This document shows positions 15,311 through 38,229 of a DNA stretch of 64,000 nt, piece by piece. Position 1 is the first letter of the stretch. Every line of letters begins with the position of its first letter. The translations under genes were made by a program, and so were the position numbers. Location: the NCBI GenBank assembly GCA_010093815.1, contig ML996585.1; one strand, given 5' to 3'. The notes under the pieces were generated by a model. The model searched no databases, was not told the origin of the DNA, and worked only from the letters and a program-made list of their open reading frames with translations. The DNA is from Pseudovirgaria hyperparasitica. Its lineage: Eukaryota.

Positions 15311-16495
15311 GTGTTGGGTGTACTGTAGTTGGATATACGAGATATGAATGTAGAGGTAATTTTCCTCCCTATCTACAATATCACCGAAACACGTGCAGTC
15401 TCACTCACCAACCCCCATATCAATGCCTCAGGCCCACTCCCACTCCCTCCTGCAGCAAGCAGCAGGTGAGAAGTGGAGCCGTCCCGTAGCCATTCATGCA
15501 GGCGCGACCCTACCCGCTTACTCAAACACACACACACCACTGGATATCCATAGATGCACCTCTACATACCACTCGTCAGTACTCGTCAGTATCCCATGGC
15601 ACGCCATCCGTCTCACGCGTGCAGCACATGCGTATCAGTCAATAAACACACTGTAAGTCTGTAAAAAAGCCGGAGGAAAGCCGGTCAGGAGCACAGTCAC
15701 GGATGCGGACGGACGTTGGGAGAAAATGGCCGTGATAGGGGTTATGTGATGGGAAGGGTTTGGAGGGTGGTCGGCAGTTTTGCTGTGGCTTGGCGCATAA
15801 GCATCAGTTTGTGAGGACTCTGGGAGTTATTGGCGGTGGATGCGTGGTGTTAATTTGGTACAGTTCAAGACTGCACTGCACTGCACTGCCATGGAAGAGG
15901 AGGTAAGGCGGTGCTGAAGTGATATTTGTTCGAGTGATGTGGTTCATTCTTGCTCGTGCTTATTCTGAGGTGAAAGTTGCGCGACTAGATGGATGGATGG
16001 ATGTTGAAGTTGACTCGTGGCATGGCATGGCATGGCATGGATGGAGATGAAGGAAGGATGAAACGTGGAGTGGGTCGCTGGTCTGGGATGTCGCGTCGGC
16101 AGAAGGACAGGACATGGAAGGTAATTAATTAATTGAGTAGGGCGAAGACATGTGGTTCTACGTGGCTGTATGTATGTTGTCGATGATTGAGTTAAGTGAA
16201 GAGACGACGGTCTGATAATGGGTGTATGACGGTGGAGGCGCGCGCAATGGATAGCTACAGTAGTCCAGGTACCTACTGTAGTAGCTGCTGGGTCGTAGCC
16301 GTGGTGTGGAGGTATGGACGAACGGGACGTCACCGAGGCATCTCAGGAACACAAGCACGCGTGTGCCTGGTGATAAGGGATAAAGTATATATACAGCACA
16401 CACATACGTATCAATTGTCCGGGGCTTATCGCTAATCGCGCAAGGGAATACATGTAAGTAAACCATACCAAAAAAACAACAAAAGGGCGCAGTAA

Positions 16496-16514
16496 GGGGG
16501 TGTTTGAAACCTCA
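16496..16514 (+). repeat. Left TIR of the Harbinger element
   Basis: GGGGGTGTTTGAAACCTCA preceded by TAA. Confidence 0.92.
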
Positions 16515-16869
16515 GCTGACGTTCAATTTTCGACGTTTCTGACGTTCAATTACCCGAAATCCGCCAAGTGTTTAAAATTAGATCTCACCTCCAGCTTAAA
16601 ACCCGAGCTAATAACTAGGGTATAGAAGACGGCGTAGAACTAAAGGAATATGGCTTCGGGATAGCTAAACTTGCCTATTGTAGATATAGTTAAATATTAA
16701 AGTCGACGTTTTTAAGTAGTAAGTATTTTTCGCCTATTAACGAGCTTAAATCTACTTAATCTTACTAGAACTTCGGTAAATTAGCGTTTTTCGCTATATT
16801 AGGTAACTTTATACTACTTACGTAAAAATATACTTTTTATTTTATAGTAGATTCGGACGATTTAGACAA

Positions 16870-18150
16870 TTTATAGAGTATACCTAGCTATAGATAATAA
16901 TAACTCTATTCTTACCCTCCTCCTTACCTATTAGAACTACCTATTTAGATTATATATAGAGGCTATTATTAATACCGTCGACTAGTATAATTAAGGTAGT
17001 TTATAAGTATGTGATTCGAAGGCGTTAGTTCCGTGTATTCTAGCTAAGATCTAAGATATAGATAATAATACTCGAATAAGAGGCTAGATAGATATTTAAA
17101 TAGATACCTTTAATAAGTTATTAGCTACTTTAAAGATATATAGACTAAAAAATAGATAGAAAGTTACCGTGGACGAAAAACTCTTTATTTACCTTTATAT
17201 CTACTAAACTAGGCTTTCTCTTAATAAGGCGTAATAGATCTTAGAAAGAGATACTAGTACCCTAAGTATATAAGCTATTAGTATATTAGTTATTATCTTA
17301 CCGCTAATATAAGTAGTAATAGTATCTTTAATTAGGTGACTTACGTATTATATTAGCTTTATAAGGATATTATAAAGCTTCTAAGCGATAACGCTAAAGT
17401 CTATTCTATTATAGCTATAAATCCTAAGCTATTACCGTTTAAGGGCGCTATTAGAGTAATTAATAGTACTTATATATCTATATCTATACTAGAGGATAAG
17501 TAGTTAGCTTAGTAGAATTAAAAGTAGTTTATCTTATAGAACGTACTTACCGTAGTTAACTTTAACCTTAACTTTATATTTATATACCCTAGCTAGGAGG
17601 GTTTAGCGTACAATCTATACGTCTTTAATAAGGCGCTTAAAGATAGATTAACGTGTTCTAAAGGGAGATACTACCTTACTAATACTAGGTATACTAACTA
17701 ATAATATACTATACTCCTCACGCCGTATTATAAGACGAGATACCACCTCTATAAGGTAATAGCTACTAGATAGAAGCTAGAGACGAAGGAGAAACTCTTT
17801 AACCTTCGATACTTATAGCTTCGGAACTATATTAAGCGTGTTTTTAGAGTTCTAAAGGTATACTTTAAGATACTATTAAACCCACGACCTAATAGAAGTA
17901 TTATATAGTAGTTAAACCTTATATTTACCCTTACTACCCTCTATAACTTTATAAATATCTACCGAGATAATACTCTAGATCTTTATAAGGTAGTTATTAA
18001 GGAGGATTCTACTAATTTAAGGCCTCTAAATCTCTATAATACGTTAGAATAGAATAACGATAGAGATCGTATTATAGTAGCGTACTAGAAGTAATACTAG
18101 GCGTATATAGAGTTAGAATATAAGAATATTAAGGATAAAGTCGTATAGTA
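16870..18150 (+). pseudogene. RIP-degenerated PIF/Harbinger DDE transposase (DDE_Tnp_4-like)
   Basis: 17435-17476 reads PFKGAIRVINSTYI (de-RIP PFKGAIGAIDGTHI). ~17530-17620 reads QNVL..NFDL.F....GWEGSAHD. 17669-17692 reads YYLTNTRY (YYLADAGY), then LLTPY..TRYHL. ~17798-17870 reads FNLRH..LRN.IERVFGVLK..FKI. Ends approximate. Confidence 0.88.
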
Positions 18151-19016
18151 GAGTAGGCGTATACTATTATTTAATATTCGCCTATGTAATGGATATAACC
18201 AAGGTGTTACTATAATGGTAATTAAGATATATTATAATTTAACTTAGAGAGAATAGAGATAAGCCGTATGGTTATAGCTTTAAGTATAGTCTTAAGCGAG
18301 GTCACGTGATACCCCTATACTAGTCTCTATCCATCCCGGCTCTATTATATAATACTAGAGATAAGGTAAAGCCGAAGTCCATAACATACCCTTATTCTCT
18401 AGGATTGTTCTAGGGACCGGCTTAGTGTTTTATATAATAATAACCGGCTCGGTTAGGTCTTAGGTTTACGGTCTTTATATTATACTATATAATAACCGTA
18501 GAGCTATATATTCCTTCTAGTAAGGTAGTAGCTTTTTATAGTAGTATCCTAGCGGTTACGTGGTGGAGGTTAGTTCCTTATATTACGGCGTCGTAGGTTA
18601 TATAATTATAAGATAGTAGAATCCTATAGTTGCGTCGTGGCGGTTATATAGTAAAGGTAGACTCCTTATATTATGGTGTACCGCGTTAGGTTATATAAAG
18701 GTAGGGTAGCCTACGTACGAACCGCGCGTCCTATTTTATTATTATCCGTTTTAGGACCGGCTACTCTCTAGGCTAGGGGTTATATAGTAGTAGTAGAGTA
18801 GCTTGCGCATGACCCGCGTTTATTATTATTATCGTCTATTTTAGGACTAGCTCTACCCCGGTCTATATGATTTTCCCTAACACGAGTATATAGGTTCTAC
18901 GCCTAGCGACTTTCTTCTTTCTTAACTACCCTTACGCCTACTATCTTAATACCGCGTAGTAGCTACTATAATATTAGTAAACTCGTATACCACCTCGCAG
19001 CTTCTATACTATTATT

Positions 19017-20490
19017 ATAAGCGCTCTAGGCCTAAATAGTCCTATTATAGAAGCCAGCGCCGTCTCGGCGGTGGCTATAGATACTAGAGGTTAAGACCCT
19101 AACGATTATCGCGCGCCTAGGCGCTAGGAACCAGCTAATTATACCGTGAGTAGGTCCTGTCTCTACGCCGTTCCTTATACTAACTAGATAGACTATTCCT
19201 TCTACCGTACCCCGATAGGCTAAGCCTATTCGCCGTATAGAGCTATATATTATAGAGGGTAACTCGTTAGAAGACGAGCGTACTAAGTCCGTGTACTTTA
19301 TATATTATATATATATAAAGGCCCTAGAGAAAACTAGGGTACTTAGATATATACCGTCTCTATACCGTGGCGGCGCCTACTAATCTTAGAGCGTAGCTAT
19401 AAGTCTAGCCGCGGTACTAACTATATAAAGTACTACACGTTAAAGGGGACCTACTTATAGAATACTAAGAAGCTCGCTATATACCCGGCCTTACGTAAGG
19501 CGTAGAGTCGTCTTAAAAAGTTTATACACGAGTTAGTTAATAATAACTTTAGCTATATAACGGATCGTGGTAGTCGCGGCCTAGACCTAATAAAGCCTTC
19601 GTCCGGTAAGTAGCCGTGTATAAACTCTAAGTTCTACTATCTATACGAGGACTATAAGTCTAACTTAGAGATTATCTATATCACGCGATATAATACTAGT
19701 ATTATTAGTTAGACTCCCGTAACGCCTTATCGTGGCGCCGTAACGTCGTTTAAGCCGCCGTATCACGGTAGTAGTAACCATAGCTAGATTAGTAGCGTGA
19801 TTCACTAGATAAATTAGTACATGTCCTATAATAAGGCCTAGATAGATAAGCTATATACTAGTATCGGCACCTTATAGGTATATAAGCTTTATAAGTCTAA
19901 ATACCTATTCTAACGCGTGACGTAGGGTACTATATAGTAAGTCGTGTCTAGGTTGGCCCGTCTAGCGGAGCTACTATCTCGCTACCTTATTACTTAGGTA
20001 GTTATAGAGGATAAGAAGCCCTTATTAGGTAGTAGCCGCTTACGCTAACTCTAGCCCGTAGGCCATAGAGAGTCGCCGACTCGGAGCTCTCGCTATCGCC
20101 CTATTAGGCCCCCCCGGCTCCCTATCGCCGCCCCTCCTCGTGAGTCCTTACCGCCTTATTATTAGCCCCGGACCCCTCCTCGCTACCGTGACCGCTCCCG
20201 GTCCTACGAGCGTTATAGCCGGTCCCCCGTCTACTATAATCGGTTTCCCTACTATCGTAACCGGTTATATAACCGTTAGAACTAGTCGTACGACCGTCGC
20301 CGTCACTCGGGTAGCTATTAGTACCGTTCCCGTGAGGATTATTAAGTATCGCGCCGCTATCGGTTGCTGGCCTGTCCCCGCTATAACCCTCCCGTAGATA
20401 AGTACGACTCGCCCTTACTACCCGCCTAGATTAATAGCCGCCGCTATTATTAGAAGACGGCCTAGAGAAGGACTAGGTAACTAACCTTAT
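19017..20490 (+). pseudogene. Antisense multi-intron accessory gene remnant inside Gypsy element A (Cys-cluster-like motif plus RS/RD-rich tail)
   Basis: Plus-strand GT..CTAAC/CTAAT..TAG intron-like units at ~19146-19191, ~19339-19389, ~19606-19667, ~19878-19925 and ~19998-20054. Tyr (= RIPed Cys) pattern Y-x7-Y-x2-Y-x6-Y at 19398-19454. RTPPRYRDRSRSYER-type reading at ~20170-20230. Ends approximate. Confidence 0.6.
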
Positions 20491-20619
20491 ATTAGGATTT
20501 GCGGATAAGGACGGTACCGGCCCTAGCGCCGTGTAAACCTAGGGTAGGGCTAGGTAAATAACCTTTTTATGTCTTAAGGTAGGTGTCGGTTTATTATTAG
20601 GTTATACTAGGTACTAGCG

Positions 20620-23600
20620 TTCGGTATTTATTTCTTTCTTTTCTAAAATCTCTACTCTTATATTAGGTTATTAGGGCCGCCGTGGGCCTATAATAGTAGA
20701 GTAATATTACTACTTAGGGATGCGTTAGAGTCGTAGGCCGTTATATAATTAAGCGTCGCTATATCTAGACTCGAACCGGTCTAGCGCCTTAGTATCTTCT
20801 ACGTCCTTAAGTAGGACCTATATTAGTTATAACTAACCTTTCTACTTTATAAGTACCTATTACTTATTCCGCCCCCGTGTATTTTTCGCACGTAGAATGT
20901 CCTTAATCTTATACTCCGTGACTTCCTCGTCTACTTTATTAAGCTCGAGTACTAGGCCCGGGCGGGTATTAAGCCGCTCTTGGCTAGGTAGGGGATCCTC
21001 TATAGCGCGCTTAATAAGACTTATATAGACCGTTTTATAAAGGTCTCCGGGGAGGTTAAGGGTTACTATTAAGGGGGTAGGTTAGACTATAACCCGGTAT
21101 TTTATCTATAGCTAGTCGAGCTTCCGGCTCGGGCGGTTAGTCTTTATATTCTAGAGGGAGAACTATACTATATCGCCGACCTTAAAACGCTCGGCCGGGC
21201 GTCGTAACCGGTTTACCGAGTCTTAGAAGCGCTACTCGGCCTAGGTAATAGCCGCTTAAGCTAAGGTAGTGCCGTTCTAAAGGTGTTTAAGGAAATTTAT
21301 AGCCCGACCTTTTACTAAGGTCGTAGAGGCGTTAGAGAGTGGCTACCGTGGTAATAGTTTAATATAGTATCCGTTTAGAAGTAAGTTTAGCGCTATACCG
21401 GTTACTAACGAGGTGCGGTTATTAAGGGCGAGCTAATATACTAGGAGATATTCTAGCTAGTTAGTTTACTCGAAAGTTACTATAACGCGTAGTATAGTCT
21501 ATACCTCCTAGTTCGCACGCTTAGTACCACCGTCCGTCTACGGGTGGTAGGCCGTAGAGAGGTTCTAGTGTATACCTATTATGGAGTAGAGGGTTATCTA
21601 GAACTACCTAAGCTAGTCCGAGCCCTAGTCCGTGATTATTAACTAGGGGAACCCCTAGAAACGCTACCACGTATTACGGAACCGCGTAGTATAGTCCTTA
21701 GCTACTATAGAGGTTATCGCCTCTAGCTAAATAAACTTTAAGAGCCGGTCCGTAATAATAAGAAGATATTAGAGCTAGGATAGGTCCGATTAGGGGAGGT
21801 CGGTTATAAAATCCATAGAAATTTAGGACTAGAACCGGTCTAGTGTTAGAAGAGGCTAGAGGAGACTAGGGGCCTTATATTAGTTTACGTGGGCCCCGTA
21901 GTAGTTATAGTTTCGTACGAACTACCGGATATTAGTCTATATCCGCTTCTAGTAGTACTCCCGCTAAATAGCTATATAAGTCTTATTCTTACTAGGATAG
22001 CCCGCGAGGGGGGAGGTATAGGACTTCTAGATAATAGTCGTGGTAAGAGGTTTCTACTCGGGTACCTAAATGACCCCCCGCTATATTAGTATTCTATATA
22101 CTAATATGGCGTAGTCTATAACCTATTTAGTAGTAAGCGCCTCCGGTAGAAAGAGGTGTACCCTACCTACTACGGCCCTATAGTAGACCTAGTATACCGG
22201 GACTAACTAAATAGCCTAGTTCTAGAGCTCCTAGAGGTAGAGGTCGGTAAAGATACTTCGTCTCTAGGGGAGATAGGACTCCCCGGAGCGGGTGCTTACT
22301 AGTACTATTCTAATAGTCTATAGGGTTATAAGCCGTCCCCTTAGGAGGGACTTTTTAGATAAGTTCTAGTTACGGCGGCTTAGAGTATCTAGGCGGGCCG
22401 CCTAGGATCCCGGCCGGTATACGAGGTCGTAGTTAAATAGTATAAGCTAGTCGGACTATCGTTACTACCGTAGAATAAGAAGATAAGACTTAGTAAAGTG
22501 CTTAAGGTTTTTATAGTCTATATAGACTATAAAGGGGCGGTAGACGCTTTAGAGCTTAGGTTCCTACGTCTAGAGATACTAAACTACTATAAGGAGCTTC
22601 TTATCGTGGATTATATAGTTCCGCTAAGCGGCCGTAAGGGCCGCGGAATAGTAGGCTACCGGGTACTAAATACCCCGAACCTTTTAGGATAGGTATCTAC
22701 CCGTCACGTGTCCGGAGTAATCCGCCTTAACTATTATATCGCGTATCTTATTCTAGGACTAGAGGATTAGCCTAGTAATGAAAGCGTTCTTTAGCGTATT
22801 AAACGCGTGGTCCTTAGCTAGGCCCTAGTAGAAGGCCGTCCTAGCCTTAGTAAGGGCGTAGAGCGGGGCCGCTATAGTAGAGAAGTTAGGGAGGAAGTTA
22901 TAGTAGAAGTTTATAAACCTAATAAACCGCTAGATACCCCGGACCGTAGTCGGGGGCTTCTAGTCCCGGATAGCGGCGATCTTCTCCGGGTTAGGGCGGA
23001 TTAACTCTCTAGCGGTAATAATATAACCTAGGTACTAGACCTCCTTAGTAGCGAAACGGTATTTAGTAAGGTCGTAGTAAAGGTCCGCCTTTATAAGGAG
23101 AGATAGGATAGTTTTTATAGCGGCCTAGTAGTCTTCTAACGTGCCTAGGGTATATATAAGGATATTATCGAGATACGCTATATAGGTAACCCCGAGGACC
23201 CCGCTTAGTACTCTATTAATATAGCGCTAGAAGAAGGTAGAGGCGCCGGAGAGACCGAAAGGGAGAACTATCTATTTAAAGAGGCCGAATGTAAGGAGGC
23301 GGGCTCCACGTACCAACCAACTACACTAAAAGGACCGAATCTTGAAGCTACTACTTCAAGGGTGGAGCACACTACTTATATACGACTACTACACACATAT
23401 AGAATCAACTGGCAGGCCACGTGCTCCTTACGTGCCTAACATTATCTCCCCTTTTCGAAGGCGCGTGTCCTTACGTATCGTGGGCATATTACCTTACGAA
23501 AGATGAACTGAACTAGCCGCAACGGGCCTAGTATAAACCATGTGCACACACAACGAATATTCGTAATGCCGCCTCTAGTACTAGACATACTAACTTACCG

Positions 23601-26300
23601 TAGTGACGTTACTACCATGTCATCTATTACGTGCATAAAGTACATGTAACGTGGCAAGCTAAACGGAATCGTGCGAAATTCAATAACGGTTGACTAGACC
23701 GAGAGTTGAACCCGTGACCCCGTAGTAGCTTTAAGATTATATAAGGAGGCGGGCTCCACGCACTAACTAACTATACTAAAAGGACCGAATCTTAAAGCTA
23801 CTGCTTTAAGGGTGGAGTACACTACTTATATACGACTACTACACACATGTAGAATCAACTAGCAGGCCACGTGCTCCTTACGTGCCTGATACCGAACTAG
23901 GTACGGAAGGCCGTCTTATATTCGTCCCTAGTAGCGACCTATAGTTTATAAAATACCGCCCGGATGTCTACCTTACTAAACCATGACGTATTACTAATGG
24001 TATATAGAGTCTCGTATATAAGTGGTAGCGGGTATCGGTCCTATTTAGTAATACTATTAAGGGCCCTATAGTTAATATATAGCCGCTACTTCCCTCCCGG
24101 CTTAGGGATAAGAAGTACTAGCGCCCCGGCCGCTAAGGAGCTAGCCCGTATCTATCCCTTATCTATAAGATCCGTAAGCTAGCGATAGAGCTCTACGAGT
24201 TATTCCCGAGATATAGCGTAGAGCGGTCCCTAGGGGAGGTTTATAGGGGTTCCCGCCGGTATAGACTTAATATAGATATAGTAGTTAGTATTCCCTCTAT
24301 AGGGAGGTAGCACCGACGCCTTTTCCTTATTAAAGAGATTATGGTAGGCGTATAGCGTTAACGGGAGCGGGCGTCTATCCTCTATAAGCTCGGTCGTATT
24401 CTAGTTAGGTACCGGAGGTAACTAGGGGAGCATAAGTTATAGGAGGCGGGTGACGTCGCGGATACTAGTAGTAACTACTCGCCTACGGCGGTAAGCCGTC
24501 TCTAGACCCCTAGGAATATAGCCCTTCTTAGTAAGGACCCGGATACTTATTAGACGCCTATAGATATTAATATCCCGGGCTATAAGGCCGTGGGCGCGGT
24601 AAAGCGTGATTTCGTCTATATATATATTAATAACGGCGCCGGCCTAGTAGAGCTACGGGCTCCTAAGGATAAGGTCCCGGTCTAGCCCGGGCACTATATA
24701 GACGGTAAGGCGTTATCGCTACCCCGCGATATTATACTAGATAGTAACGACTTCCGTAATCTCTAGTCCTAATACTCCGTTAGTAGTAAGAGCTACTTGA
24801 CGATGTAGGACCGAGATATACGACTTAGCCACGTCTACTATAAGGGCCGGGCTAACCACCACGAAATACTCGCACCCTATATCTACTAAGGTATCTATAT
24901 ACTTCCTATTCTAGAGGAATAGCGATATAACGGGTGGGGATCCGTCTATAATCTAAGCGGGCGCGCTATCCTCTAGGTCGGAGCCGTTATCCGGGTTGCC
25001 TATAGCTTCGTTCCTTACCGAATATAGTAACGTCCTCTAACCTAGGCTTTAGTAGAGGGCTATACTTCCCCCGCCTTAGAGTTAGAATTAGTATTATTCT
25101 AAGCTAGGGCTATAACCTTAAGCGCTCGTATATTAATAGCGTTTAGATAGCCCCGGTATTAGTAGCTAGCCTAGCCGTACCGGGTATACACGCCCGCCGT
25201 GCGGCGCTTCTAGAATAAGTCCTTCGGGATCTATAAAGGAGTCTCTTTCTTCTTAACCCCGTCTCTACCCTTTACTATTAGGGACGCGGCTCGCTTCTTA
25301 CTCTTTATCTTAATAGTCTTAATAGTAACCGCCGATATTATCGTATCGCCGTCCTTATCCTTACTAGGCCTATTTTAAGGTACGGCGCTTTACCTAGTAT
25401 AGAGCTAGAATAACTCTATATCTATACTAATATTCTAAAGGCGGCCTACGGCGGCCTTATACTAGTCTAGGAGGCCCTGGTTTAGGGCTACCGCCTAGGT
25501 CTCCTAGTTAAGGCCGTCCCGGAGCCGTATAAGCTTCTAGTCATTAGCCTAGTATATTCCCCTAGCCTTCTAGAGGGCGGTATAGAACCGCACGAAGTAC
25601 TCTATAAACGGCTCCTTTACCTTTTATATAATTATATTTAACTACTAGAGGGCCCGCTCTTTAGCATGTATGTCTCCGAACTAGAATTTAAGGTAGTCTA
25701 AGAACGCGTATAGATCCTAGTCACCGTTTAGCCCCCTAGTGGAATATATAGTACTAACCCCCCTCTATACCTTAGGCGCTAGGTTAGTCTAAATAAGGGC
25801 TATTTAGTCTCTATAGGTACCGATAAAGTCGGCGTTCTAGGTAATCTTATACTATATCGTGACGGACTATATATAGAAGAGGGCCTTAGACCCGTTATAT
25901 AGGTCGCTAAGGGGGAGGGGCTTCCTCTTAGGAGCCTAGTCGAGTATAATATACGGCGTAGAAAGTAGTAAGGCGGGAGCGCGTGTAGGAAAGGCTAGTT
26001 TAGGCCCGTATAGGCGTTAGGGCGCTACCGGGGAGGAGTCGGGCTAGGGTAGGGACGAGTTACTATAAGTTAAGGTGGCGGGAGTACGGCTATATAACTT
26101 AACGGTAAGGAGGCGGGCGTTAATATATTATAGAGCCGTATAGACGCTATGTTCGATGTTAGATATCCGAGACTCGCTTACCGCTTAGACGGCCGTAATA
26201 GACTCGTGGATAGACCGTATCTCGTCCCGAAAGCTAAGGAAGGAGTTAGAGAGTTACTATATTAGATTAGAGTCTTACGGGTTAAGACTATCTTATACTA
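20620..26300 (-). pseudogene. gag-pol of Gypsy element A (CCHC, protease, RT, RNase H, integrase, chromodomain), interrupted by the TRIM
   Basis: De-RIP readings: CCHC knuckle ~25140-25200; RT FRTQFG|LFEW.VLPFGL split exactly by the TRIM, and YLDDILIY ~23150-23180; integrase STAYHPQTDGGTER ~21520-21560; chromodomain YLIKWKGW..PTWV..EDVED ~20790-20860. Confidence 0.88.
23290..23891 (-). mobile_element. TRIM (terminal-repeat retrotransposon in miniature), 602 bp, inserted in the RT of element A
   Basis: 152-bp direct LTRs at 23290-23441 and 23740-23891. TSD CCGAA at 23285-23289 and 23892-23896. Non-coding 298-bp interior. PPT (minus-strand AAAAGGGGAGATAA) abuts the left LTR. Confidence 0.92.
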
Positions 26301-26576
26301 TAAGGCCACGTATAGGAAGAGATAATTAAAGTTAAATTAATATAATAGATATAACCAAGGTGTTACTATAATAGTAATTAAGATATATTATAATTTAACT
26401 TAGAGAGAATAGGGATAAGCCGTATAGTTATAGCTTTAAGTATAGTCTTAAGCGATGTTACGTGATACCCCTATACTAGTCTCTATCCGTCCCGGCTCCG
26501 TTATGTAATACTAGAGACAAGGCAAAGCCGAAGTCCATAATAGCCTAGTATATATAGTATATAGAATCTAGGCGTA

Positions 26577-26716
26577 TGTTAGGCACGTGCCTACCAGTTG
26601 ATTATACATGTATGTAGTAGTCATATATAAGTAGTGTACTCCACCCTTAAAGTAGTAGCTTTAAGATTCGGTCCTTTTGGTATAGTTAGTTGGTACGTAG
26701 AGCCCGCCTCCTTATA
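26577..26716 (+). mobile_element. Solo LTR (140 bp) of the TRIM LTR family, opposite orientation to the TRIM
   Basis: Reverse complement of the TRIM LTR. TSD GCGTA at 26572-26576 and 26717-26721. Confidence 0.9.
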
Positions 26717-28276
26717 GCGTAGTATATACACGTATATTATGTGGAGTTATAACCATAATAAGTATAAATATTACTAAGCACGCAGCGACTTTCTTACACG
26801 GGTTCTCTTCGGGCTATACTACCTACTAAAAGTACGTCTTTTAGCGGGTATTTTATAGATATAATAGCCTGGTAAGAGCCTGGCGGAAAAGTCGCTACGT
26901 AATACTATACTACTATATCTAATAATATTTACTATAAACGCGAAGGCTATATACTAGATAGGTGAATATATATACGTTATAGTCTAAAATAGGCACTAGC
27001 TCGCTTAGATAGGTGTAGTAAATATACGTTATTAGTATATATATATATTTTTAAATCTATTAAAATATTCTTAATACTATACTCGTATTATTATAACTAA
27101 TAGTAGACTATAACTACTATAGACGCCCTACTATAGACTTAGATACTATACTTCCTTTATCTATAGTCTATATAGCCTTCTTCTTATCCGTAACCGTTAA
27201 ACGGCTAACCTCTACTATAGGAAATAGACCCGAGGCGCTACTATCTCTCTCTATAATCTACCCTTATAAAAACTTCTTCGCTCTCTTATTACTTATACTA
27301 AGGAAGAGATTAGCTATACCGGGGTTAGCGATAATAAGGTAGGCCTTATTAAAGTCCTTGTTAGTAAGTAGAGTTAAGTACTTTAGCTCTAACTTCTTTA
27401 TAGCTACTTATATTAGATCTTATTTCTTTAAGGTATATTTTTTAAACGTCTAAGTAAACTTACTCTAAGTCTAATATATAACCTTAGTAATATTACGGAT
27501 AGCCTTACTCCTTAGAGTAACTCTATTCTTAATTTTAAGGCGCTAAGCCGTAGCCTTACTATAAAGAGTAAAGACGTGGGATAGTAGTCTAATAGTTCAT
27601 AGAGAGACATAGAAATGTATTTATAGAGTAATCTTACTCTTATATAAGGTTAATTCCTAACGAGTAGAAATCGGTTTATGCGGTCTACTTATATAGTAAC
27701 CTCGCTTAACTTAGCTAACTTAACCTAGCTCTAGCCACTACGTGGCTACATGGATTAGAATAGTCTATATAGGTCCGTTATAGTTCCCGTCCTAATAATA
27801 TTCTTCTTCTTTTTATACTTCGCCCCGAAGTACTTAAGTATATATAATCCTAAGTCTCTATAATCCATCGTATATCTATATATCTATAACTAAGTTCCTA
27901 CAACGTTATAACTATCCTTAATATAGGTGAACTCGAGATTCTAGTTTACTTTTATTAGTTTATACACGCGCTTATCTCTTACTTCGTGGCTACTGCCTAG
28001 AACACGTAATTACTACTTTAGTTAAGTATATATTTAGCTTCGCTCGCCTTTGATTTTATTCTCTAGTATATCCACCTCGCTCTTAAGGTAAGTCGTTAAT
28101 TTATATACTATCTTCCCTAGTTTAGGTCTAGAAGGGTCTATAGTAGTCTATTCTTATTAGAACCGGTCCAATATAACCTATTCGCATTATTATAGTCACT
28201 AATTTAGCTTCGTTAATCGCCGTTAAGGGTAGACGAATATTCCTTCCTTAGATCTCTAGCTAATATATATATATAG

Positions 28277-29589
28277 ATATCTAATACTAGTCCTATCTCT
28301 AAGCCTACCTCCTCCTCTCGTAAGACTTACTCTAAAGGTATTGCCTCCTCCCCGGCCACGCCGGCTAAGAAGTCTACCTATCGCGGTAGTATAAAGGCGC
28401 GCTCTAAGTCGGAGAAGAGAGTAGCTAGGGCTACTACTACTACTACCTCTACTACTAATATGGCTACTAGTCGCTCTAATCTAGGTGATTCTAGTACTAA
28501 ACTTATGGATAAAGTGGTTATAGGTTCTCCTCTCGCTCTAAAGTACACGCCGTCTACTCTACCTCCTCTAGAGAATAAAGAAGATCTTATTATAGATAAT
28601 AATCGCGAGCCCTCGCGCTCACCTACGCCGCCGCCTCGCCGCTCTTCCTTCTAGTCTAATATAGACCGATTTAGTTGCTCTAGGTCCTTTTAGGACCTTA
28701 ATATTCGCTCTAAACCCTAGCCTACTAATAATAAGGCCTAGGTTACTAAGGATACTAAACGTGGTCGTAGTTTACGCCATAGGAAAACGGTAAACTACGG
28801 TTTAATATACTATAAGTATATTAAGGGCCATACGGCCAGCTCTAAATATCTCTTTCGCTCTAACTCTAGTATTAGCTACTACTCTACTAACCGCGACGGG
28901 CCTATACGCCCTATCTTTACTCTACCTATCTACTACCGCCGCTATACTATAACTAGTAAGACTTATCTATAGGTAAGTATAATGGGCTATCTTAATCTAG
29001 TATAATCTAAAGTAGTCCGCGCTAATACATTCTTAGGTTCCTATATATATATAAGATATATATAATAACCTTCGCGTCCGCGAGACCCTTAGGGGTCCTT
29101 ATAGCCGCCTATCTATTATATAGAGGGAGTTTAGAGAGCGCTATAAGCTCTTCCTAGAGGTTATTAAAGTATAAGTTACGAGCACGTTAATTATTTTTAA
29201 TACCTATTGATTTTTCTAGCCGCCGCGAGATCCCTAGCGCCTAGGCTACCTATTCTAGGGAGTCTATTCTAGCTATAGAGGCCGTAGAGAGGATTCGCTC
29301 TATCCCTCTCTATCCGTCTCGCGCTACTAACGGATCTTATAAGAGGTCTACTATTTCTCTCTCTAAGTCGCCTCGTAAGAGGGTATATATTCCCTTCTAG
29401 ATTATTCTAGATTATATTAGCTAACTTTAGACCTAGTCGCTACGCTCTAGTACTTAAGGCTCTTCCCTCTAGGCTCTAATAGATTAGATTATTACTCTAG
29501 AGGCTAAGGTCGTCGTCCTCCGCTACTATATCGTACGGTTAGAGAGAACTATACTAGAGATTAGGACGGATAATAAGATAGAGGAGTAG
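28277..29589 (+). pseudogene. Antisense intron-containing accessory gene remnant inside Gypsy element C (Cys6 cluster-like motif, C-terminal coiled coil)
   Basis: One frame from 28277 to 28972 whose only stops are TAG (RIPed CAG/TGG). It contains Y-x2-Y-x9-Y...Y-x2-Y-x6-Y (28808-28966). Introns GTAAGT..GCTAAT..TAG (28973-29036) and ~29169-29219. Then SPRKR and a heptad reading LMDRIVALEAEVVVLRR (de-RIP) at ~29475-29545. Confidence 0.7.
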
Positions 29590-30189
29590 CTCTATAGTTC
29601 TAGCTCTATGTGTTAGCTCTATGCCTAGCTCTATATATTCTAGATCTACTATAGGTAGTACGCGCCGGCTCTGTTTACCTAGCTTTTATCCGTTTTAGTT
29701 CTTTTTAGACCGTTTAGATACCTATCGGCCAGTTTCTAGTAATTTAATTCTTAACTTAATGATATTATGTGTGCGCTCGCTTAGCTTATAACTATCGGTT
29801 TCTATATTCTAATTTTCCTTAAGTTACCTAAGTGTGGGCACCGTATATAAATTAGTTTATCTCTATGAATTCTATTAGAGCACCCGAACTAGTAGCCTAG
29901 TAGTTATTGGTTTAGGTACTCTAACCTTTTATATTTCGTGTTAAGAGTTTAATTCTATGGTAGGGTACCTTTTTTTAGGTTCTTAGTCCTATATTTTTCT
30001 CGTGTATAATGGTCTATATTAGTCTATTCTAGACTCTTCTATATTATTCTATTATAGTATATCGCGTCGCGTTTCTAAAATGGTTGTTTACGCTTTCTTC
30101 GCGTCTAGTAACCGTATAACGCTTAAATTATAGGGCTACTATATAGAGTTTTCCTAGTGCGCGTCTGGATTTCCTGGTTTAGTACTTCG

Positions 30190-33100
30190 TTCTCTACGGT
30201 ATCCTTCTTCTTTTTACGACGACTACGACGTCGCTATACTTATATTAATAATATACTATTCTATATCTTTTGCTTATACGTAGTTATTATAGAACTTAAG
30301 ATGTATACCGCTAGTTCCTAGGTATTCTTATCCTTAGTATAGTCCTTCTAACGGATTCTATATTTCTAAACACCGTCTTTATTAATTCTATATTTAATAA
30401 TATAGTCTACTTCGAACACTTCTAGTCTATCTTAGGGTATAATAGAGTATAACTATACGTTAGTACGGCCATACACGTTAGGTCGAAATCTTTTAAGTAG
30501 TAAGACGTGGAACACGTTATAGATTCTTATATCGCTTTCTAAGTCGAGCTTATAGACTCTTATACTAATGCGACGTTTGATTCGGAAGGGACCAGCCATT
30601 TTATAATTAAGCTTCTTATTTACTCGCGACGTTCGTATATTACGGACGTTAAGAAGGACCTTATCGCCCTTCTTATACGTCTAATCCTTAGCTAACCTAT
30701 TATAGTACTTCGTATACGAGTCGTTTACTTATTAGATTATAGCGTGATAGTTATGTACGGTTTCGAAGATTTTAATCGCTAATTCCTAAGCGTGGACGTT
30801 CACGTCTATTATTCGATTAAATTAGACCGTCTAAGGCTTAAAACCTATCCTTAGACTACGTCCGAGGTTCGCCTAGAAAGGTATAATATCTATCATACTA
30901 TAACGACTATTATTATATACGAACTCTACTATACTTAGTAGGGAGGCCTAGTCGTCCTACTCGAAATTATAGAATATACGTAGGTAGGCCTTAAGCGTCT
31001 AATTCTATTACTCTATCTAGCCATCCGTCTAAGGATAAAATACTATAGATATGTTTCTATTTATGCTTACTATTTCGTAGAATAACGTCTAGAATTTAGA
31101 CGTGAAGGTACTTCCTCGGTCTATAACGATCCTTTTTAGTATACTATGGACCTTAATAATCTCGTTCTAGAACACCTACGCTAGTTCTTTAGATATAATC
31201 ATCTTCTATACTAGGATATACCTAGATATCTTTATAAGTCTATCCACGATAATAAGGATAGAATTATAACTTATTCTAAGTATCTCGCTTAGAGGTAAGT
31301 TAACTATAAAGTCTATAGTAACATCTTGCTATATAAAGAGGGGGGCTGAAAGAGGCTATAAATTCCTATATAGCTTATGCCTAGGGGCCTTCGTTCTTTA
31401 ATAAATCGGATAAGTAGCTATCTATTCTTTAACGTACTTAGGTATATCTTTCTAAAAATAGTACTAACGAATTAAGCTTAGGGTACGTATATACCTAAAG
31501 TATCCTACTAGATTAGCGTTATAGTATTAGCTAACTACGTTAAATCGCGCGTTACCCGTTAGTATATAGTACTTTCTATCGTAGTAAAGTAAGCCGTCCA
31601 CGAAGGTCTACTTATAGTCTACTTTAGTCTATAATAACCTATCTTACTATATTTTACGTAACTTTAAAACTATCGGGTCTATCTTCTATAGATCCACGAT
31701 TAACTAGGCGAGGTTAATTAGATATTCATGCTAGATATTATCGCCCTTCCCGATAGCGCTAATAAACGGCCTACTAGGGACTTCGGTACTATATCTTTAG
31801 TTACCGGCTTCGGTCTTAGAGATTTAATTACTAGCATCGATGTTAGTATCTTACTAATCGCCTAATAACTTAAAATCTAACCTTATTCTTAAGAGTTAGG
31901 CCTATAGCTACTCTAGGACCCTATGGCTACTATAATCCTAGGCGCCTTCTTCATAGTTAGGTCTTCTTAATATTCTATTAGCTAGGTTTATACTTCTAGG
32001 TTAATAGTAGATTATAAAGTGAAAGTTCATAAGCTACTTAGCCTATCGGACCTATTAACGGTTTAAAACCGTCGTGCTTATAAACCCCTTTAAGTTATAG
32101 TAATTAGTTAGTAACTTAACGTTATACATAGTACCTTTAAGATAATATCGCTACTATTTAAACGACTCTACTATTACTAGTAGCTCTTAGTTATAGATAG
32201 TATATCTAGTCTTAATATCGACTATTTTACGTAAGAAGAACACAACTAGATACCATTAGACCTTTTTAGACTTAGTTAGTCTAGGCTAGAAGAGAATATC
32301 TAAGATTATAAATCCTAACGCGTCGGTTTTAACGTGGATAGGTTTAGTCGGGTCGAAGTGCACTAGTAATAGGGTAGTTATAAATACCTCTTTAATTTTC
32401 TCGAAGGAGGCCCTTTCGCCTTCTAATAATTCTATAGGCTACGATTTAATATTACGCTATTTCTATCTACTACGGACTATAATAGACGAATCTATAGTAG
32501 TAGTACGCGCGTTAAGTAGTGCTACTAGCCGGGAGAAATGCTTAACGAATTTTTAGTAGTAATTAGCGAATCTAATAAAGACATATATATCTCGAACCGA
32601 TTTTAGTTTAGGCCAGTCCACGATAGTAGCGACCCTATCCCTTTCTATAGTTATACCTTAATTAGTAATAACGAAGCTAAGGAAGTTAACGTAGTCCTAG
32701 TGGAACTCGTATTTAGATAGCTTAATATATAGCTTATATTTTTCTAGCCTATCTAGGACTACGCGTACGTGCTAGATGTGTTCTTCTTCGTTATTAGAGA
32801 AGATAAGAATATTATTAAGGTATATAATGCACGTCGTATCGAGTAGGCCTACTAGCGCGTTATTAATATACGCTTAGAAGGTTCCTAGCGCGTTAGTTAG
32901 TCTAAAAGGGACTACTATGTACTCGAAGTATCTATAACGGGTCCTAAACGCTGTTTTCTACTTATCGCCCTTCTTAATACGTAGGCGGTAGTAGACGTCG
33001 CGTAGATTAAGCTTAGTAAAGATCTTCGCGCGCTCTAGTCTATTAATAGACTTAGAGATAAGAGGTAGTAGATAACGATTCTTTCGCGTGATATTATTTA

Positions 33101-35165
33101 GGCTATAGTAGTCGATATATAGATAGAGACTCCTATCCTTCTTCTTTATAAAGAGGATTAGAGCTCTAGCTAGAGATATACTAGGCCTAATCTATTCTCG
33201 TGTAAGGTTCTTTTCGATATATTCTCGGAGAACCTATAGCTCGGGTTCTAATAGAGGGTAGATAGGTCCGTATAGGGGTTATTAACTATCTTCAAGGTTA
33301 ATAGTAAGGTCGGTAGATTAGTATTAAGGTAATTCGGACGAGTCGATCGCTAACACGATATATTAGTATATTTTATACTAATATAGTAGGTTTTCGTCCA
33401 CTTTAATACTAAGCTCTCTATTTTAAGTAAGTAAGAGGACGTAGATAGCGGAGATTATCTTTTTATAGTCCTTCTAGAATTATTCGTCGTCGACTAGCTA
33501 TACTAGGTTCTATTATAGTAGGTACATGCGCTAGCCAGCTATTTTCTAGATAAAGTCTAGTTTTAGGTTATATTTTTCGAGCCACGGTATACCGAGAATT
33601 ATATTAAAGGGACTATCTACCACGATAAAGGTTAAGTAGTAGGGTTTCTACTTCCCCCCGCTGTCCTAGATACCATATTTAATAGTATAGATACTCTATG
33701 ATTTAATAGGACCGTCGATACTATAGAAGGTAGTATCTATTAGTACTTAAATATTAACGTTAAGTTCTCGTACTCGTTAAGTCGATATAACGTTAGTAGC
33801 TAAACCGCTATTAAGTATTATAGTCTAATGTTATCCATAAGGGACCTTAATAGGTCTAGCCTATAGTTTAATATACTAGTTAGCTAGTTATCCCTCTATT
33901 TTAGTTACGTCTATAAGTCGCGAGGGTTCCTTATAGATAGTTAGTTTTTTATATTATATACCGGGTAGTTAGACACGATGTATCCTAGCTACTAGTACTT
34001 ATAGTATATAACTAACTTAGTATCTATATTAGTATTCGGTGGTTTCCCTAAGCGGTACTTAGGTACTATATAGTCTATTCTACTATAGGTATAGTAGGTG
34101 ACTTTAGGTTATTTATATAAGTCGTTTCTCGCGTCTCGATATATTAACTAGTAGAAAGATCCGTGGTACGGGCCTCGTCTTCTCGAGTTCGTAGAGTGGT
34201 AGCACCCACGAGGTATTCCGCGCGATCTATTACTAAACCGGTCCTCTTTAGACGATTTTATATCGGATTAGATTAATAGAGATAGTCATGCGTCTATATA
34301 ACCTTAGTTATTTATTATACGCTAATATTATTCTACGAGATTCGCGAGTACCTAAAGGTTAGTAGAGATAGATATTATAAGGTCGATGCGTTCCTTTACG
34401 CTCGGGTTAAGGGACCTTTTAAAGTTATCGTATTATCGAACCATGCGATCTTCCTTAGCTTCTCTCTAAAGAGGTCGGAGGTATTTAAGGAGTTATAACG
34501 GGGATTATCTCTCTCGCTATTAAGTCTTAAAGATATAGCTCTAAGTCTATTCGTGTCGCTTAGCTCTATCGCCAAAGTATTAAAGAAGGAATTTAGTAAA
34601 CGTGTCCTAGTTATACGTATCCTTAGGGTGTTTAATTCGATATACTATCTAACGTTTAGATAGTATTAGGTCTAGGTAGTTCTATATAAATCTAATCTTA
34701 TTACTATCGTTCGTGAATAGATAGAAGAATCAGCTATACTAATAAGCCTATTTATAAAAGCTTCTCCTGGTTTTACCGTCGAAGTAAGGTAGTTTCTTAG
34801 GCTAAGGTAACTAGGATAGTAATAGACTTAGTTAGACTATTTCGGCTTAAGTTAATCTATATTAGTATAGATTAGTTACTACTAGTACTAAAGCGCGTAG
34901 TACGGCTTCGAGTCTAGCGGTTTATCCTCGCGCTTTATTAAGTTTATAAAGTTACTACTCGAGCTAAGCCTAACGCTACCTCTCCGCGTATAGCTTAGTA
35001 TATATATTATTATAAGGCGTGGTTAACGTTAGTCGGTTCTAACGACTTAATTCATTAATATTAATAGGGTCTAGTCTTATAGTAAGGATGGGTCTAGTAT
35101 AGTATAAACTAGACCGCGATAGAGTATAATGGACTCCTTCCTTATTATCTAGGTAATCTTCCATA
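30190..35165 (-). pseudogene. gag-pol of Gypsy element C
   Basis: De-RIP readings: CCHC ~34050-34105; RT YLDDILIFS.NEEEHI.HVR.VL.RL ~32750-32825 and FTKLDLRDVYYRLRIK.GD.WKTAFRTRY ~32935-33025; integrase IHNVFHVSLL ~30495-30525; chromodomain FEVD.I.KHR....YRIRWKDY..D..TWEP ~30310-30418. Confidence 0.88.
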
Positions 35166-35716
35166 GTTATACGGAATACTATACTAGTTATTAATATAAT
35201 AGCCTATAGGGTATACTTATTAGTAGAGGTGGTTATAGGGAGACTATTCTCTTCGTTTAGATTTAGAGAGAGTCTCTTATATAAGGTAGTGCTACGGGTA
35301 TTATAGCGCGTAGTAGAAGCTATCTCTATAAGCTGCTATCGTGCTATATAGAGAGAAATTAAAATATAAAGAGTAAAGACGTAGGATAGTAGTCTAATAG
35401 TTTATAGAGAGATATAGGAATATATTTATAGAGTAATCTTACTCTTATACGAGGTTGATTTCTAACGAGTAGGAATCGGTTTATATGGTCTACTTATATA
35501 GTAACCTTACTTAACTTAGCTAACTTAACCTAGCTCTAGCTACTACGTGGCTACATGGATTAGAATAGTCTATATAGGTCCGTTATAGTTCCCGTCCTAA
35601 TACTTACGATCCTTAATCCGGTCCTTATTCTTATCTCTATCTTTATTAGAGTTATTATAGTAAGTCTCCTTATTACTACCCTTATTATTAATATTAATTA
35701 GCGCCTTAATAGTATA

Positions 35717-35856
35717 TGTAAGGAGGCGGGCTCCACGCACCAACCAACTACACCAAAAGGACCGAATCTTGAAGCTACTACTTCAAGGGTGGAGCACACT
35801 ACTTATATACGACTACTGCACACATGTATAATCAACTAGCAGGCACGTGCCTGACA
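35717..35856 (-). mobile_element. Solo LTR (140 bp) of the TRIM LTR family, almost free of RIP
   Basis: TGTAAGGAGGCGGGCTCC...GTGCCTGACA with TSD GTATA at 35712-35716 and 35857-35861. Retains many CpA/TpG dinucleotides. Confidence 0.92.
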
Positions 35857-36808
35857 GTATACCTAATTATTCGTAAGTAGTGGCTAGTAGCTACCATATC
35901 TCTAAATATTTACTTAAGTAACTTAAGGTAAGATAGACCTTTACGTCTAAACCTTCTATAATCCTTATACTTAGCGAAGTATCTATCTATAGCCTTAGAA
36001 TCCGTCTAGTATATCCCTAGTCTATTACTCTACTACCATCCTAATAGCGCGTTTAGGTGCTTATTCTATAGCTTAAAGGCTTTCTTCTAGGTACCGAACT
36101 TCGACTTTAGTATCGCGGTAGTTAACTTAAATAGTAAGTCCTTTTCTATCTCTATTTCTATAGCTATCTATATAGTCTTTAGAAAGGTTCTACCACTACT
36201 TTAAAGGCTAAGTTTCCTTAATAGAAAATTATAGAACTAGACCTTAATCGCCGGTGTCGTCTATATCCGCCCTTTATATTTTAGTTTCCCTCTACTAGAT
36301 ACTACCCTCTTTAGTAAAGAGATAGACACCTATAGATCTATAGTATTACTCCGCCTATATTTTAAACTAGATAATAAAGAGTTAGATAGTAATTAAATAG
36401 TATTAGTAGATAAGGGCACGTTAGAGTCCTTACTACTATCTAGTTACTACTTATATAAAAGTATACTTTTTAGTTTCTTAATAGATTTAGATGATTTAGT
36501 ACTTATAGACGATTTATCTACTAGTAGTAGAGGGTTAATAACGTCGTTAGGCGTATATATTACTATTTTTATACCTTAACTTAGTATATAAAGGTATGAC
36601 TTTATTTTTAAGGTTAGAGGTATAGTATATATACTACCCCGCCTTAAGGTTATATTACTAACTAATTACTAAGTAAGCTAACCTTTAGCCAGATTTCAAA
36701 TACCCAGTCGCTCTAGAGGTTAAACTAATATAAGACTATTAACGGGTGGCATACGGACGCCGTCTATACACTAGTAAATAAGGTTTTTTTAAAGGTTAAA
36801 AATCGACG

Positions 36809-36827
36809 TGAGTTTTCAAACACCCCC
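36809..36827 (-). repeat. Right TIR of the Harbinger element
   Basis: TGAGTTTTCAAACACCCCC followed by TAA. Confidence 0.92.
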
Positions 36828-38229
36828 TAATTATTATGTGATCCATCATGCGGACAAAATGTCGTGGTCGTCGTCTTCGGATTGACCGGGGTCCGAGTTT
36901 AGGGGGAAAAGAGAGGCTTGGAAGGAAGGGGGCGTGAACGGGTCGTGAACGGACTGTGTGTAGTAGTAGGCAGGGCAATAGTCAACGTTGACGCCACAGA
37001 ACAGCTTCGGTCGATTTAGGATGGTTGTGCGGTAGGTATGTATGGTGATGTGTTATTTATAGTGGTGGATGAATGGCAAGAGTATATGTACAAAGAACAC
37101 TGAGGTCGTAGAGGCGTGACGCACGGGCAGACAATTAATTAAGATACTTGATCCTCCCAATGCAATGCAGCTCGTTGTCGTGGTCAAGAATGAAGATGAA
37201 TGACACAGTGGGCCGGATGGAAGGTTGGAAGCCAGAATAATTGGGCCAGGCTTGACTGCATATAGTTTGGCTGGTGGGACATGGCGCGGAGGATGGCGAG
37301 ATGCGATTGGACAGGGCGAAATTGCATCAACTGTCTCTCTCTCCGGCTTATTAGTTGGAGTCGAGGCGAGTTGAGTGTTCGAGTGTCGCCTGGGAACTGT
37401 TGGAAGAAAAGAAAGAGGCGGCTGGCAGGGGAGGAGGAGGCAGCTGGGATTGCGGCTTTGGGGGGGGGCGTTTCTATGCCCATTGCCCGCCTATTAGCTG
37501 CCACTTTAGGGGGCGACGGTATACAACATACCTGCCTGTGCACTGTCGAATACGCCCACGCACGGCAGTCAACCCTACTTACTACACACCCACACTGTGT
37601 CACATCCACACACACACCACACACTCTCACACTCTCTCTCTCTCACATCTCCCTCACACACTCTCTCCCTCCCTCCTACATCCTCGTCCATTCACTCTTT
37701 TCGCTCTCTTCTGCTTTGCTACTTGCTTTGTTCCATAACACACATCTCTACTGCTTCTGCTTCTTTGCACAGTCACTCGTTATTCAACAACATCACTCAG
37801 AAAGAAGATTCCCTTCTTTCCACTACTGCGCCTCGCTCGGCCACGCTTCTTTCTGTCCATCTGCAGCTACTACCACCACTACCTAGACACGCTATCGCTT
37901 TCTCCCTTAGGCCACGTCTAAAATCGCTGTCTTTTCCCGCTGCCGATCACCACCACCACTCGCTTTTTTCGCTTTACTTGCTTTGCTCCTTCACTCCAAT
38001 CGCCCGCCCCTGCCTTCACACGCTAATTCACTCCCTCCTTCTAGAGCGGCAGTCCGTCATGTACTGCTGCTGTTCACTGTCCTTCTGATCCGACTGTCCT
38101 TCTTCGTCCCTCTCCCACCACCCCACGAGTGCGACGACAGGCCTACACCACTTTACCACGGTAGAGTTGGTAACCCTCCATCATTTCTTCTCCCTCTCGC
38201 CGCCTCCATTGTCGTCCGGACATTGGGCC

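Follow-up and report, generated by a model that had tools for sequence, protein, structure and literature searches.

An open, codon-phased frame antisense to gag-pol in a mutated Ty3/Gypsy chromovirus of Pseudovirgaria hyperparasitica, and a different six-cysteine antisense gene in related elements

The 64,000-nucleotide (nt) stretch of Pseudovirgaria hyperparasitica DNA analysed here (contig ML996585.1 of assembly GCA_010093815.1; hereafter the window) contains a complete Ty3/Gypsy chromovirus of 8,043 nt, located on the minus strand at 27560-35602 and altered throughout by repeat-induced point mutation (RIP). Between the end of its pol gene and its 3' long terminal repeat (LTR) lies a spacer of 2.4 kb (27798-30200, not assigned to a strand; hereafter the accessory region), which most likely holds a former coding region antisense to gag-pol, and this is a property of the repeat family and not of this copy alone. 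A plus-strand frame within the spacer is open far beyond chance and displays a strong codon periodicity, and the region around it is part of the repeat family. We see about an even chance that the spacer holds the wreck of an accessory gene antisense to gag-pol, of the class represented by brtn of Botrytis elements and by the antisense genes of the plant elements Grande, RIRE2, and Retand. An earlier note, made from the letters of the window alone, had proposed a spliced gene for a zinc-cluster protein at this place; in related chromoviruses this concept is realized by a different gene.

The candidate remnant of the antisense open reading frame (ORF) comprises 231 codons and a terminal TAG (28277-28972, plus strand). 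Its first codon is ATA, a possible ATG changed by RIP, and directly follows an upstream TAG. Between 28277 and 28969 the frame is interrupted by four stops, all of them TAG (at 28652, 28691, 28718, and 28739), and it is closed by the TAG at 28970. Its first 125 codons constitute the longest of the 20 stop-free runs of at least 70 codons that occur in the six frames of the 21-kb RIP-mutated block surrounding the element. Chance expectations were obtained from 1000 first-order Markov simulations with the local composition of 28100-29100 or of 27798-30200. An open run of 125 codons was reached in none of the 1000 simulations of the shorter interval and in three of the 1000 simulations of the longer one, and a count of stops as low as four in the best of six frames was never reached in 1000 simulations, the simulated mean being 15.2. 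The claim of the earlier note that a frame of about 700 nt, with TAG as its only kind of stop, opposes gag-pol is thereby borne out. The translated frame is basic and rich in Ser, Thr, and Pro, and it ends in a Tyr-rich tail.

Through RIP, CA and TG become TA. Within 28277-28969, positions 1, 2, and 3 of the plus-frame codons are occupied by the T of TA 18, 18, and 76 times, respectively (p = 9e-14), i.e., TA is concentrated at the boundary between the third position of one codon and the first position of the next. This bias persists when the (ACT)n run at 28425-28470 is left out (18/18/64; p = 6e-10), it is present in each 150-nt window of 28250-28999, and it ends at about 29000. Tandem Repeats Finder reports within the frame only a triplet run of 27 nt, and tandem repeats are therefore not the cause of the bias. 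As a control, pol read in its own frame displays the same bias in a weaker form (139/156/228 over 994 codons; p = 3e-6). Judging by the codon phase of TA, there is good reason to regard about 700 nt as coding sequence prior to RIP.

Other copies of the element can be viewed through the contigs of two sequencing runs of one sample (X1 and X2), which were placed on the window at 80% likeness. On 27000-36200, 27,810 contig pieces from X1 and 10,116 from X2 were placed; all 30 of 30 bins are covered, those of the accessory region by diverged contigs. Summed contig depth, which is not to be equated with copy number, amounts to 115,065-201,970 over 27614-30376, to 96,718-379,996 over 30377-35595, and to 200-265 in the two outermost bins, and it is of the same order in the accessory region as in pol. 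Nearly all places at which X1 contigs differ are transitions (463 of 478), and diverged pieces are found, inter alia, on 28285-28479 (32 other letters) and on 29701-29855. Since diverged contigs from the same genome extend across every part of the accessory region, this region is not a one-off capture and belongs to a repeat family, which removes the concern, raised together with the original proposal, that a host fragment had been caught by a single copy. Among the 40 of 530 differing places that are listed, the accessory region has only 29448-29449 (TA here, CG elsewhere), and none lies in 28808-28966, the Tyr-rich segment. Contigs in both X1 and X2 skip 28634-28952 (317 nt) and carry nine other letters instead, which means that at least one copy exists without the Tyr-rich end of the frame. 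In a single contig of X1, 27817 is followed by 15 other letters and then by 30234; this joint is weak, having 23 letters on its shorter side, and would correspond to a short form of the element without the accessory region. In two further runs that carry the same species label (X3 and X4), almost none of the window is present, which carries no information on expression.

Antisense genes at the same place are known from other LTR retrotransposons. In Boty-like elements of Botrytis, the antisense gene brtn is mentioned in three publications and attributed there to Zhao et al. (2011; Virology 417:248) (PMC8365987, PMC7264820, PMC4227169); it is placed between pol and the 3' LTR, and Sclerotinia is named as well (PMC7264820). 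As portrayed there, brtn resembles the window frame in being an extra gene of a fungal Ty3/Gypsy chromodomain element that is situated between pol and the 3' LTR and antisense to gag-pol, whereas the window copy is dead through RIP and is likened to brtn by place and strand, not by sequence. The arrangement as such is not new, contrary to the novelty implied in the earlier note, given that these accounts already place a gene of this orientation between pol and the 3' LTR in a Gypsy element of fungi (PMC8365987, PMC7264820). In plants, antisense ORFs (aORFs) between pol and the 3' LTR are reported for Grande, RIRE2, Retand (with a TRP28 domain), and PvRetro13; they occur in most copies of a family, and their products are suspected to be nuclear or DNA-binding and to have a regulatory role (PMC7264820, PMC11963269). 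The frame at 28277-28972 agrees with these aORFs in place and orientation, being a plus-strand frame opposite the minus-strand pol and between pol and the LTR, with the plus strand about twice as probable as the minus strand to have been the coding one. In contrast to the aORFs as described there, which belong to Tat/Retand-type plant elements, it resides in a fungal chromovirus and matches neither TRP28 nor any other Pfam family. Outside the retrotransposons, human T-cell leukemia virus type 1 (HTLV-1) encodes the antisense protein HBZ, which is of bZIP nature. A nuclear antisense protein of HTLV-1 and APH-2 of HTLV-2 are described in PMC11963269, and they share with the putative product of the window frame the setting of a nuclear regulator encoded opposite gag-pol in a retroelement; this is a functional analogy only, as they are unrelated proteins of animal retroviruses.

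If the spacer once held such an accessory gene, its recognizable remnant would be a single exon of about 231 codons (28277-28972) on the plus strand, started by an ATG that has become ATA. The basic, Ser/Thr/Pro-rich product would probably have been disordered, and its Tyr-rich tail may once have held Cys or His. It might have acted in the nucleus as a nucleic-acid-binding protein that regulates the element, and a promoter belonging to the gene itself, within the 480 nt that adjoin the 3' LTR, could have driven transcription. Being encoded opposite to the genomic RNA, such a gene would retain any intron through retrotransposition. Like the rest of the element, the putative gene would now be dead through RIP. 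A more specific proposal, which we regard as unlikely, is that the plus frame represents the first exon, wrecked by RIP, of a hitherto unseen family of antisense nuclear regulators of chromoviruses, Cys/His-rich before RIP, with a retained intron, and functionally parallel to the six-Cys gene described below. If it were true, antisense DNA-binding regulators would have been gained repeatedly by fungal chromoviruses. LTR retrotransposons with extra antisense genes are known, though these genes are poorly understood, and for fungi the parts of the literature reached name one, brtn; the window frame is a second fungal candidate, possibly unrelated in sequence, in a very abundant RIP-mutated family. 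More generally, the codon phase of TA dinucleotides made by RIP can expose a dead gene where homology searches fail.

An antisense gene with a recognizable zinc-cluster pattern is present in chromoviruses related to the window element. The related set consists of 79 metagenomic loci, 63 of which have a pol match reaching the C-terminus and 51 of which extend at least 500 nt beyond it. Downstream of pol, 62 antisense ORFs of at least 100 amino acids are encoded in 37 loci, and one BLASTP cluster of these ORFs unites 10 of the 79 loci; tblastn found nine of these ten. The members of this cluster (alignment A2) are located on the minus strands of loci L019 (5638-6156), L023 (6608-7171), L026 (5240-5836), L030 (272-892), L031 (5608-6126), L034 (2839-3336), L043 (6626-7171), L046 (5377-5952), L047 (4586-5119), and L050 (1311-1829). 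The gene codes for 166-207 amino acids, is convergent with pol, and needs no intron, and the N-terminus of its product is basic and Ser/Thr-rich. Where tblastn detected it (nine loci), the end of its match lies at most about 130 nt from the end of a pol match or overlaps it. Six invariant Cys residues are arranged as C-x2-C-x6-C-x8/9-C-x2-C-x6/7-C, which is the canonical Zn(II)2Cys6 (Zn2Cys6) pattern, and a long coiled coil is predicted in addition.

When 8000 proteins were scored with a profile of the six-Cys family, 340 of them reached E ≤ 1e-3, so that the databases contain at least 340 relatives, and the canonical Cys spacing is present in 118 of the 120 proteins listed from this search. 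Two named relatives (P0169 and P0204) come from the Dothideomycetes Cercospora kikuchii and Sporormia fimetaria and bear the UniRef label Zn(2)-C6 fungal-type domain. Pfam Zn_clus remained below its cut-off in seven of seven members tested, with E < 1 in three of the seven and a best score of 17.5 bits versus the required 21. An AlphaFold model of a six-Cys protein, with a mean per-residue confidence (pLDDT) of 75.6, has a small domain at the N-terminus and a single long helix (residues 65-141). Foldseek searches with this model gave no match at E ≤ 0.001; among its 19 weak matches, 13 are DNA-binding domains of Hap1, Pho7, Gal4, Lac9, or Ppr1, and a sequence search against solved structures likewise returned Hap1/Pho7/Gal4/Lac9/Ppr1-type proteins in 7 of 18 matches. 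No description of the six-Cys antisense gene was met in the literature searched for zinc-cluster genes in fungal retrotransposons. Should six-Cys proteins bind to promoters of the host or to the LTR of their own element, they would correspond in fungi to the antisense regulators of retroviruses.

The window frame and the six-Cys gene are alike in being antisense, in lying downstream of a related pol, and in having a basic Ser/Thr-rich N-terminus. They differ in that the window frame has neither the six-Cys spacing nor a profile match, and in their place within the spacer, as 1.2 kb separate the end of the window frame (28972) from that of pol. In hmmsearch, the window region gave no match to a six-Cys profile built from nine members and a best E of 18 with one built from 129 members. 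Judged by these sequence comparisons, the window ORF is a different gene and stands outside the six-Cys family. Further antisense ORFs downstream of pol are encoded in L062 (9491-9970 and 10341-10694), L067 (3650-4147 and 4274-4723), L078 (6228-6722), L028 (4625-5188), and L011 (6308-7000). They fall into small families, the members of which begin with a basic part, resemble a coiled coil in the middle, and end in an acidic tail; the ORF of L011 is Cys-rich (C-x2-C...C-x2-C-x5-C). Extra antisense genes may thus be common in this group of chromoviruses. In about half of 23 loci the "LTR" repeats are situated at contig ends and may be assembly overlaps, and spacer lengths are unreliable there.

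Homology searches did not link the window frame to any protein. In a word-indexed search of 5.8 billion proteins with the translated frame, none of 607 word-sharing candidates reached E ≤ 0.01; phmmer gave no match among 1.84 billion representatives, and no Pfam family was recognized with TAG read as X, W, or Q. A comparison of the six-frame translation of 27798-30200 with the 79 related loci yielded four rows with a best E of 0.44, whereas the C-terminal part of pol matched many of the same loci, its 25 best rows having E ≤ 2e-51. The antisense ORF of L011, whose full layout C-x2-C-x14-C-x22-C-x2-C-x5-C is loosely like the Tyr pattern of the window frame, was aligned with the region in a RIP-aware manner and scored 121 in the proposed frame; this score was reached by 46 of 200 shuffles when all frames were considered and by 9 of 200 in that frame, and taking the maximum over ancestral residues inflates all such scores.

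The original proposal had interpreted Tyr residues in the tail as Cys residues of a zinc cluster converted by RIP. A Tyr-rich C-terminal segment with the pattern Y-x2-Y-x9-Y-x28-Y-x2-Y-x6-Y is indeed present (28808-28966, plus strand), but it is no commoner than expected by chance and its spacing is not canonical. Tyr accounts for 8% of the residues in six-frame translations of the RIP-mutated block, in which the loose pattern occurs five times with Y only and seven times with C or Y, and the half pattern Y-x2-Y-x6-Y occurs 26 times. The spacing x2-x9-x28-x2-x6 contrasts with the canonical C-x2-C-x6-C-x5..12-C-x2-C-x6..8-C, and canonical spacing on C or Y is found twice in the block and in none of the frames of 27798-30270. 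Likeness to Gal4-type Zn2Cys6 factors (PF00172) is confined to the second half of the pattern (x2, x6), whereas the spacings of the first half and of the linker differ and a match to the hidden Markov model (HMM) is lacking. The HMMER search for Zn_clus that had been suggested (PF00172; cut-off 21 bits) gave no row at E ≤ 10 for the frame, whichever of X, W, or Q was substituted for TAG, which is a weak negative on letters changed by RIP. RIP-aware alignments to the profile of the six-Cys family scored 38.6 versus a null of 40.3 ± 3.4 and 35.6 versus 42.8 ± 4.2 (column-shuffled profiles), and the spliced model scored 26.5 versus 25.3 ± 3.7. With a wrong spacing, no Pfam match, and RIP-aware alignments at the null level, the product of the frame is not a demonstrable Zn2Cys6 protein. 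A CCHC zinc knuckle, for which canonical spacings are x2, x4, and x4, was also considered for Y-x2-Y-x3-H-x5-Y and was rejected by eye, as the spacing differs.

Directly after the terminal TAG, an intron-like stretch of 64 nt (28973-29036, plus strand; GTAAGT ... GCTAAT ... TTAG) is followed by V-P, just as had been pointed out; such motifs are, however, present at chance frequency in the RIP-mutated block, where 20 GTAAGT sites occur on both strands and seven of them are accompanied, at distances suited to an intron, by a branch-like CTAAY and a YAG. It may be that the TAG at 28970 is no more than a stop codon. The second exon that had been proposed contains three stops in about 45 codons, two of which are TAA, ends at a TGA, and has no TA phase signal. 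As for the exon said to encode an SPRKR motif, an open stretch of 51 codons with SPRKR exists (29245-29397, plus strand), but it lies in another plus frame and is weakly supported by a faint TA phase signal (12/4/3 in 29225-29374). The spliced three-exon model is not sustained, as intron-like motifs are no more frequent than chance would give and codon periodicity is not clear past 29000.

Several explanations compete with that of a wrecked accessory gene on the plus strand. It is highly improbable that the region represents a three-exon spliced antisense gene for a Zn2Cys6-type DNA-binding factor whose Cys codons were changed to Tyr codons by RIP, and the Zn2Cys6 part of this model is largely refuted. 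The model profits from the fit of Y-x2-Y-x6-Y at the end of the frame to C4-x2-C5-x6-C6, from the position of TAG|GTAAGT with branch point and acceptor exactly at the end of the frame, a splice pattern that is unique on both strands of the block if a preceding YAG is required, and from the six-Cys and coiled-coil antisense gene of related chromoviruses, by which the architecture is known to exist. It suffers from x9 in place of x6, from halves that are 28 residues apart rather than 5-12, from the five to seven chance occurrences of the loose pattern and the absence of canonical C/Y spacing in 27798-30270, from the lack of a Zn_clus match, from a best E of 18 with the 129-member profile, from RIP-aware scores at the null level, and from an exon 2 with TAA stops, a TGA end, and no codon periodicity. 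As to the strand, TA is its own reverse complement, and the phase signal therefore does not discriminate between the plus frame and the minus frame that shares its codon boundaries. The minus frame would belong to a third ORF, in sense orientation downstream of pol, with an Arg/Gly-rich nucleic-acid-binding tail protein as its product, which we consider very unlikely. It contains open runs of 74 codons, and its nine stops in 231 codons are below the 6.6% of pol. These nine stops (six TAG, two TAA, and one TGA) are twice the number in the plus frame, where all four are TAG, and canonical CpA-directed RIP does not make a TGA. Second codon positions have 36% C on the plus strand, corresponding to a Ser/Thr/Pro/Ala-rich protein, versus 36% G on the minus strand; the former value is usual for disordered proteins of that composition, and the latter is unusual in proteins over 230 codons. 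TAR codons (TAA or TAG) are depleted among TAN codons of the plus frame (4 of 18; p = 0.01), whereas their share on the minus strand (8 of 18) equals the non-coding expectation. The plus strand is thus favored over the minus strand by a factor of about two.

Some observations weigh against a former plus-strand gene altogether. TAR depletion is no general mark of a RIP-mutated gene, as pol has 66 TAR versus 73 TAY codons. At 28260-28650, several frames on both strands are unusually open, with minus-strand runs of 90 and 74 codons, and this fair openness of the minus strand means that local composition contributes and that the plus strand is a probable, not a certain, choice. Searches of proteins, Pfam, and related loci yielded no homolog of the translated frame; RIP damage could hide relatives, yet pol, damaged as well, still finds its relatives at 2e-201. 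The openness of several frames and the lack of a protein homolog would also be expected of a non-coding 3' internal region without any gene, in which an ancestral C-rich, low-complexity periodicity of 3 nt has left one frame open after RIP. The low complexity of the sequence, with its ACC/ACT run and its Ser/Thr/Pro codons, speaks for this explanation as well, and other retrotransposons commonly have long, repeat-containing regions between pol and the 3' LTR (PMC11963269). We nevertheless judge it unlikely, because the phase bias extends over about 700 nt, in every 150-nt window and also outside the triplet run, and because so few stops never occurred in composition-matched simulations. Rather unlikely, too, is a passenger origin, by which an ancestor gained, in the interval from pol to the polypurine tract (PPT), a piece of another element or of a gene of the host, which was then copied without any service to the family. 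Two PPT-like words of 17 nt that bracket the accessory region (see below), the weak 27817/30234 joint of a possible short form, and a retained intron, which would fit captured genomic DNA, are in favor of it. On the other hand, diverged contigs cover the region as fully as pol, so that it has spread with the family, and a host-like protein match is absent; besides, a passenger reading concerns origin and is still compatible with a function for the element.

The host element itself shows all parts of a Ty3/Gypsy chromovirus, i.e., a pair of LTRs, a target-site duplication, a PPT, and the order reverse transcriptase (RT) - RNase H - integrase - chromodomain in a single frame. Its 3' LTR (27560-27797) and 5' LTR (35365-35602), both of 238 nt and on the minus strand, are direct repeats that are 94% identical and lie 7805 nt apart from start to start, and they are directly flanked by the target-site duplication CTTAC (left copy 27555-27559, right copy 35603-35607, without strand). 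The PPT (TAAAAAGAAGAAGAATA in minus-strand letters; 27799-27815) abuts the 3' LTR. A second PPT-like 17-mer on the minus strand (30200-30216), 16 of whose 17 letters are identical to 27799-27815, is located at the basic tail that ends pol. The accessory region is thereby bracketed by direct repeats, a hint at its insertion between pol and the PPT at an early stage of the family.

The gag-pol frame (30201-35051, minus strand), identified by its Pfam matches and its relatives, is interrupted by many TAA and TAG stops made by RIP; RT occupies about 32670-33149 and the chromodomain about 30270-30416. When a single minus-strand frame (27597-35051, TAA and TAG as X) was searched, Pfam recognized RVT_1 (1.9e-16), RT_RNaseH_2, RT_RNaseH, and SH3_Tf2-1 (1.4e-14), while the matches to Chromo and Integrase_H2C2 (16.7 and 16.8 bits, respectively) are weak and under the Pfam cut-off on letters changed by RIP. 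The Chromo match stops at about 30270 and pol at about 30200, in keeping with the gap of about 2.4 kb to the 3' LTR that had been given. Among 7999 scored proteins, 152 are relatives of pol at E ≤ 1e-10, the best at 2e-201, and they are chromodomain Ty3/Gypsy polyproteins.

The element is embedded in a RIP-mutated block at about 16-37 kb, in which TA/AT is 1.5-2.4 and (CA+TG)/(AC+GT) is 0.14-0.76 per 2-kb bin, the latter being at most 0.43 between 16 and 36 kb; in the flanks outside the block, the two indices are about 0.6 and 1.2-1.3, respectively. Self-comparison revealed no second copy of the element within the window, LTRs aside. The parts of the block around the element (16000-27559 and 35603-37000) consist of other repeats, and the only DNA shared with the element is that of its own LTRs. 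Sharp swings of composition are also seen in DNA not mutated by RIP at 14001-16000 and 49001-50000 (GC contents of 0.60 and 0.56), with a GC skew that changes from -0.28 to +0.31 across 14-16 kb and an AT skew of -0.52 at 49-50 kb.

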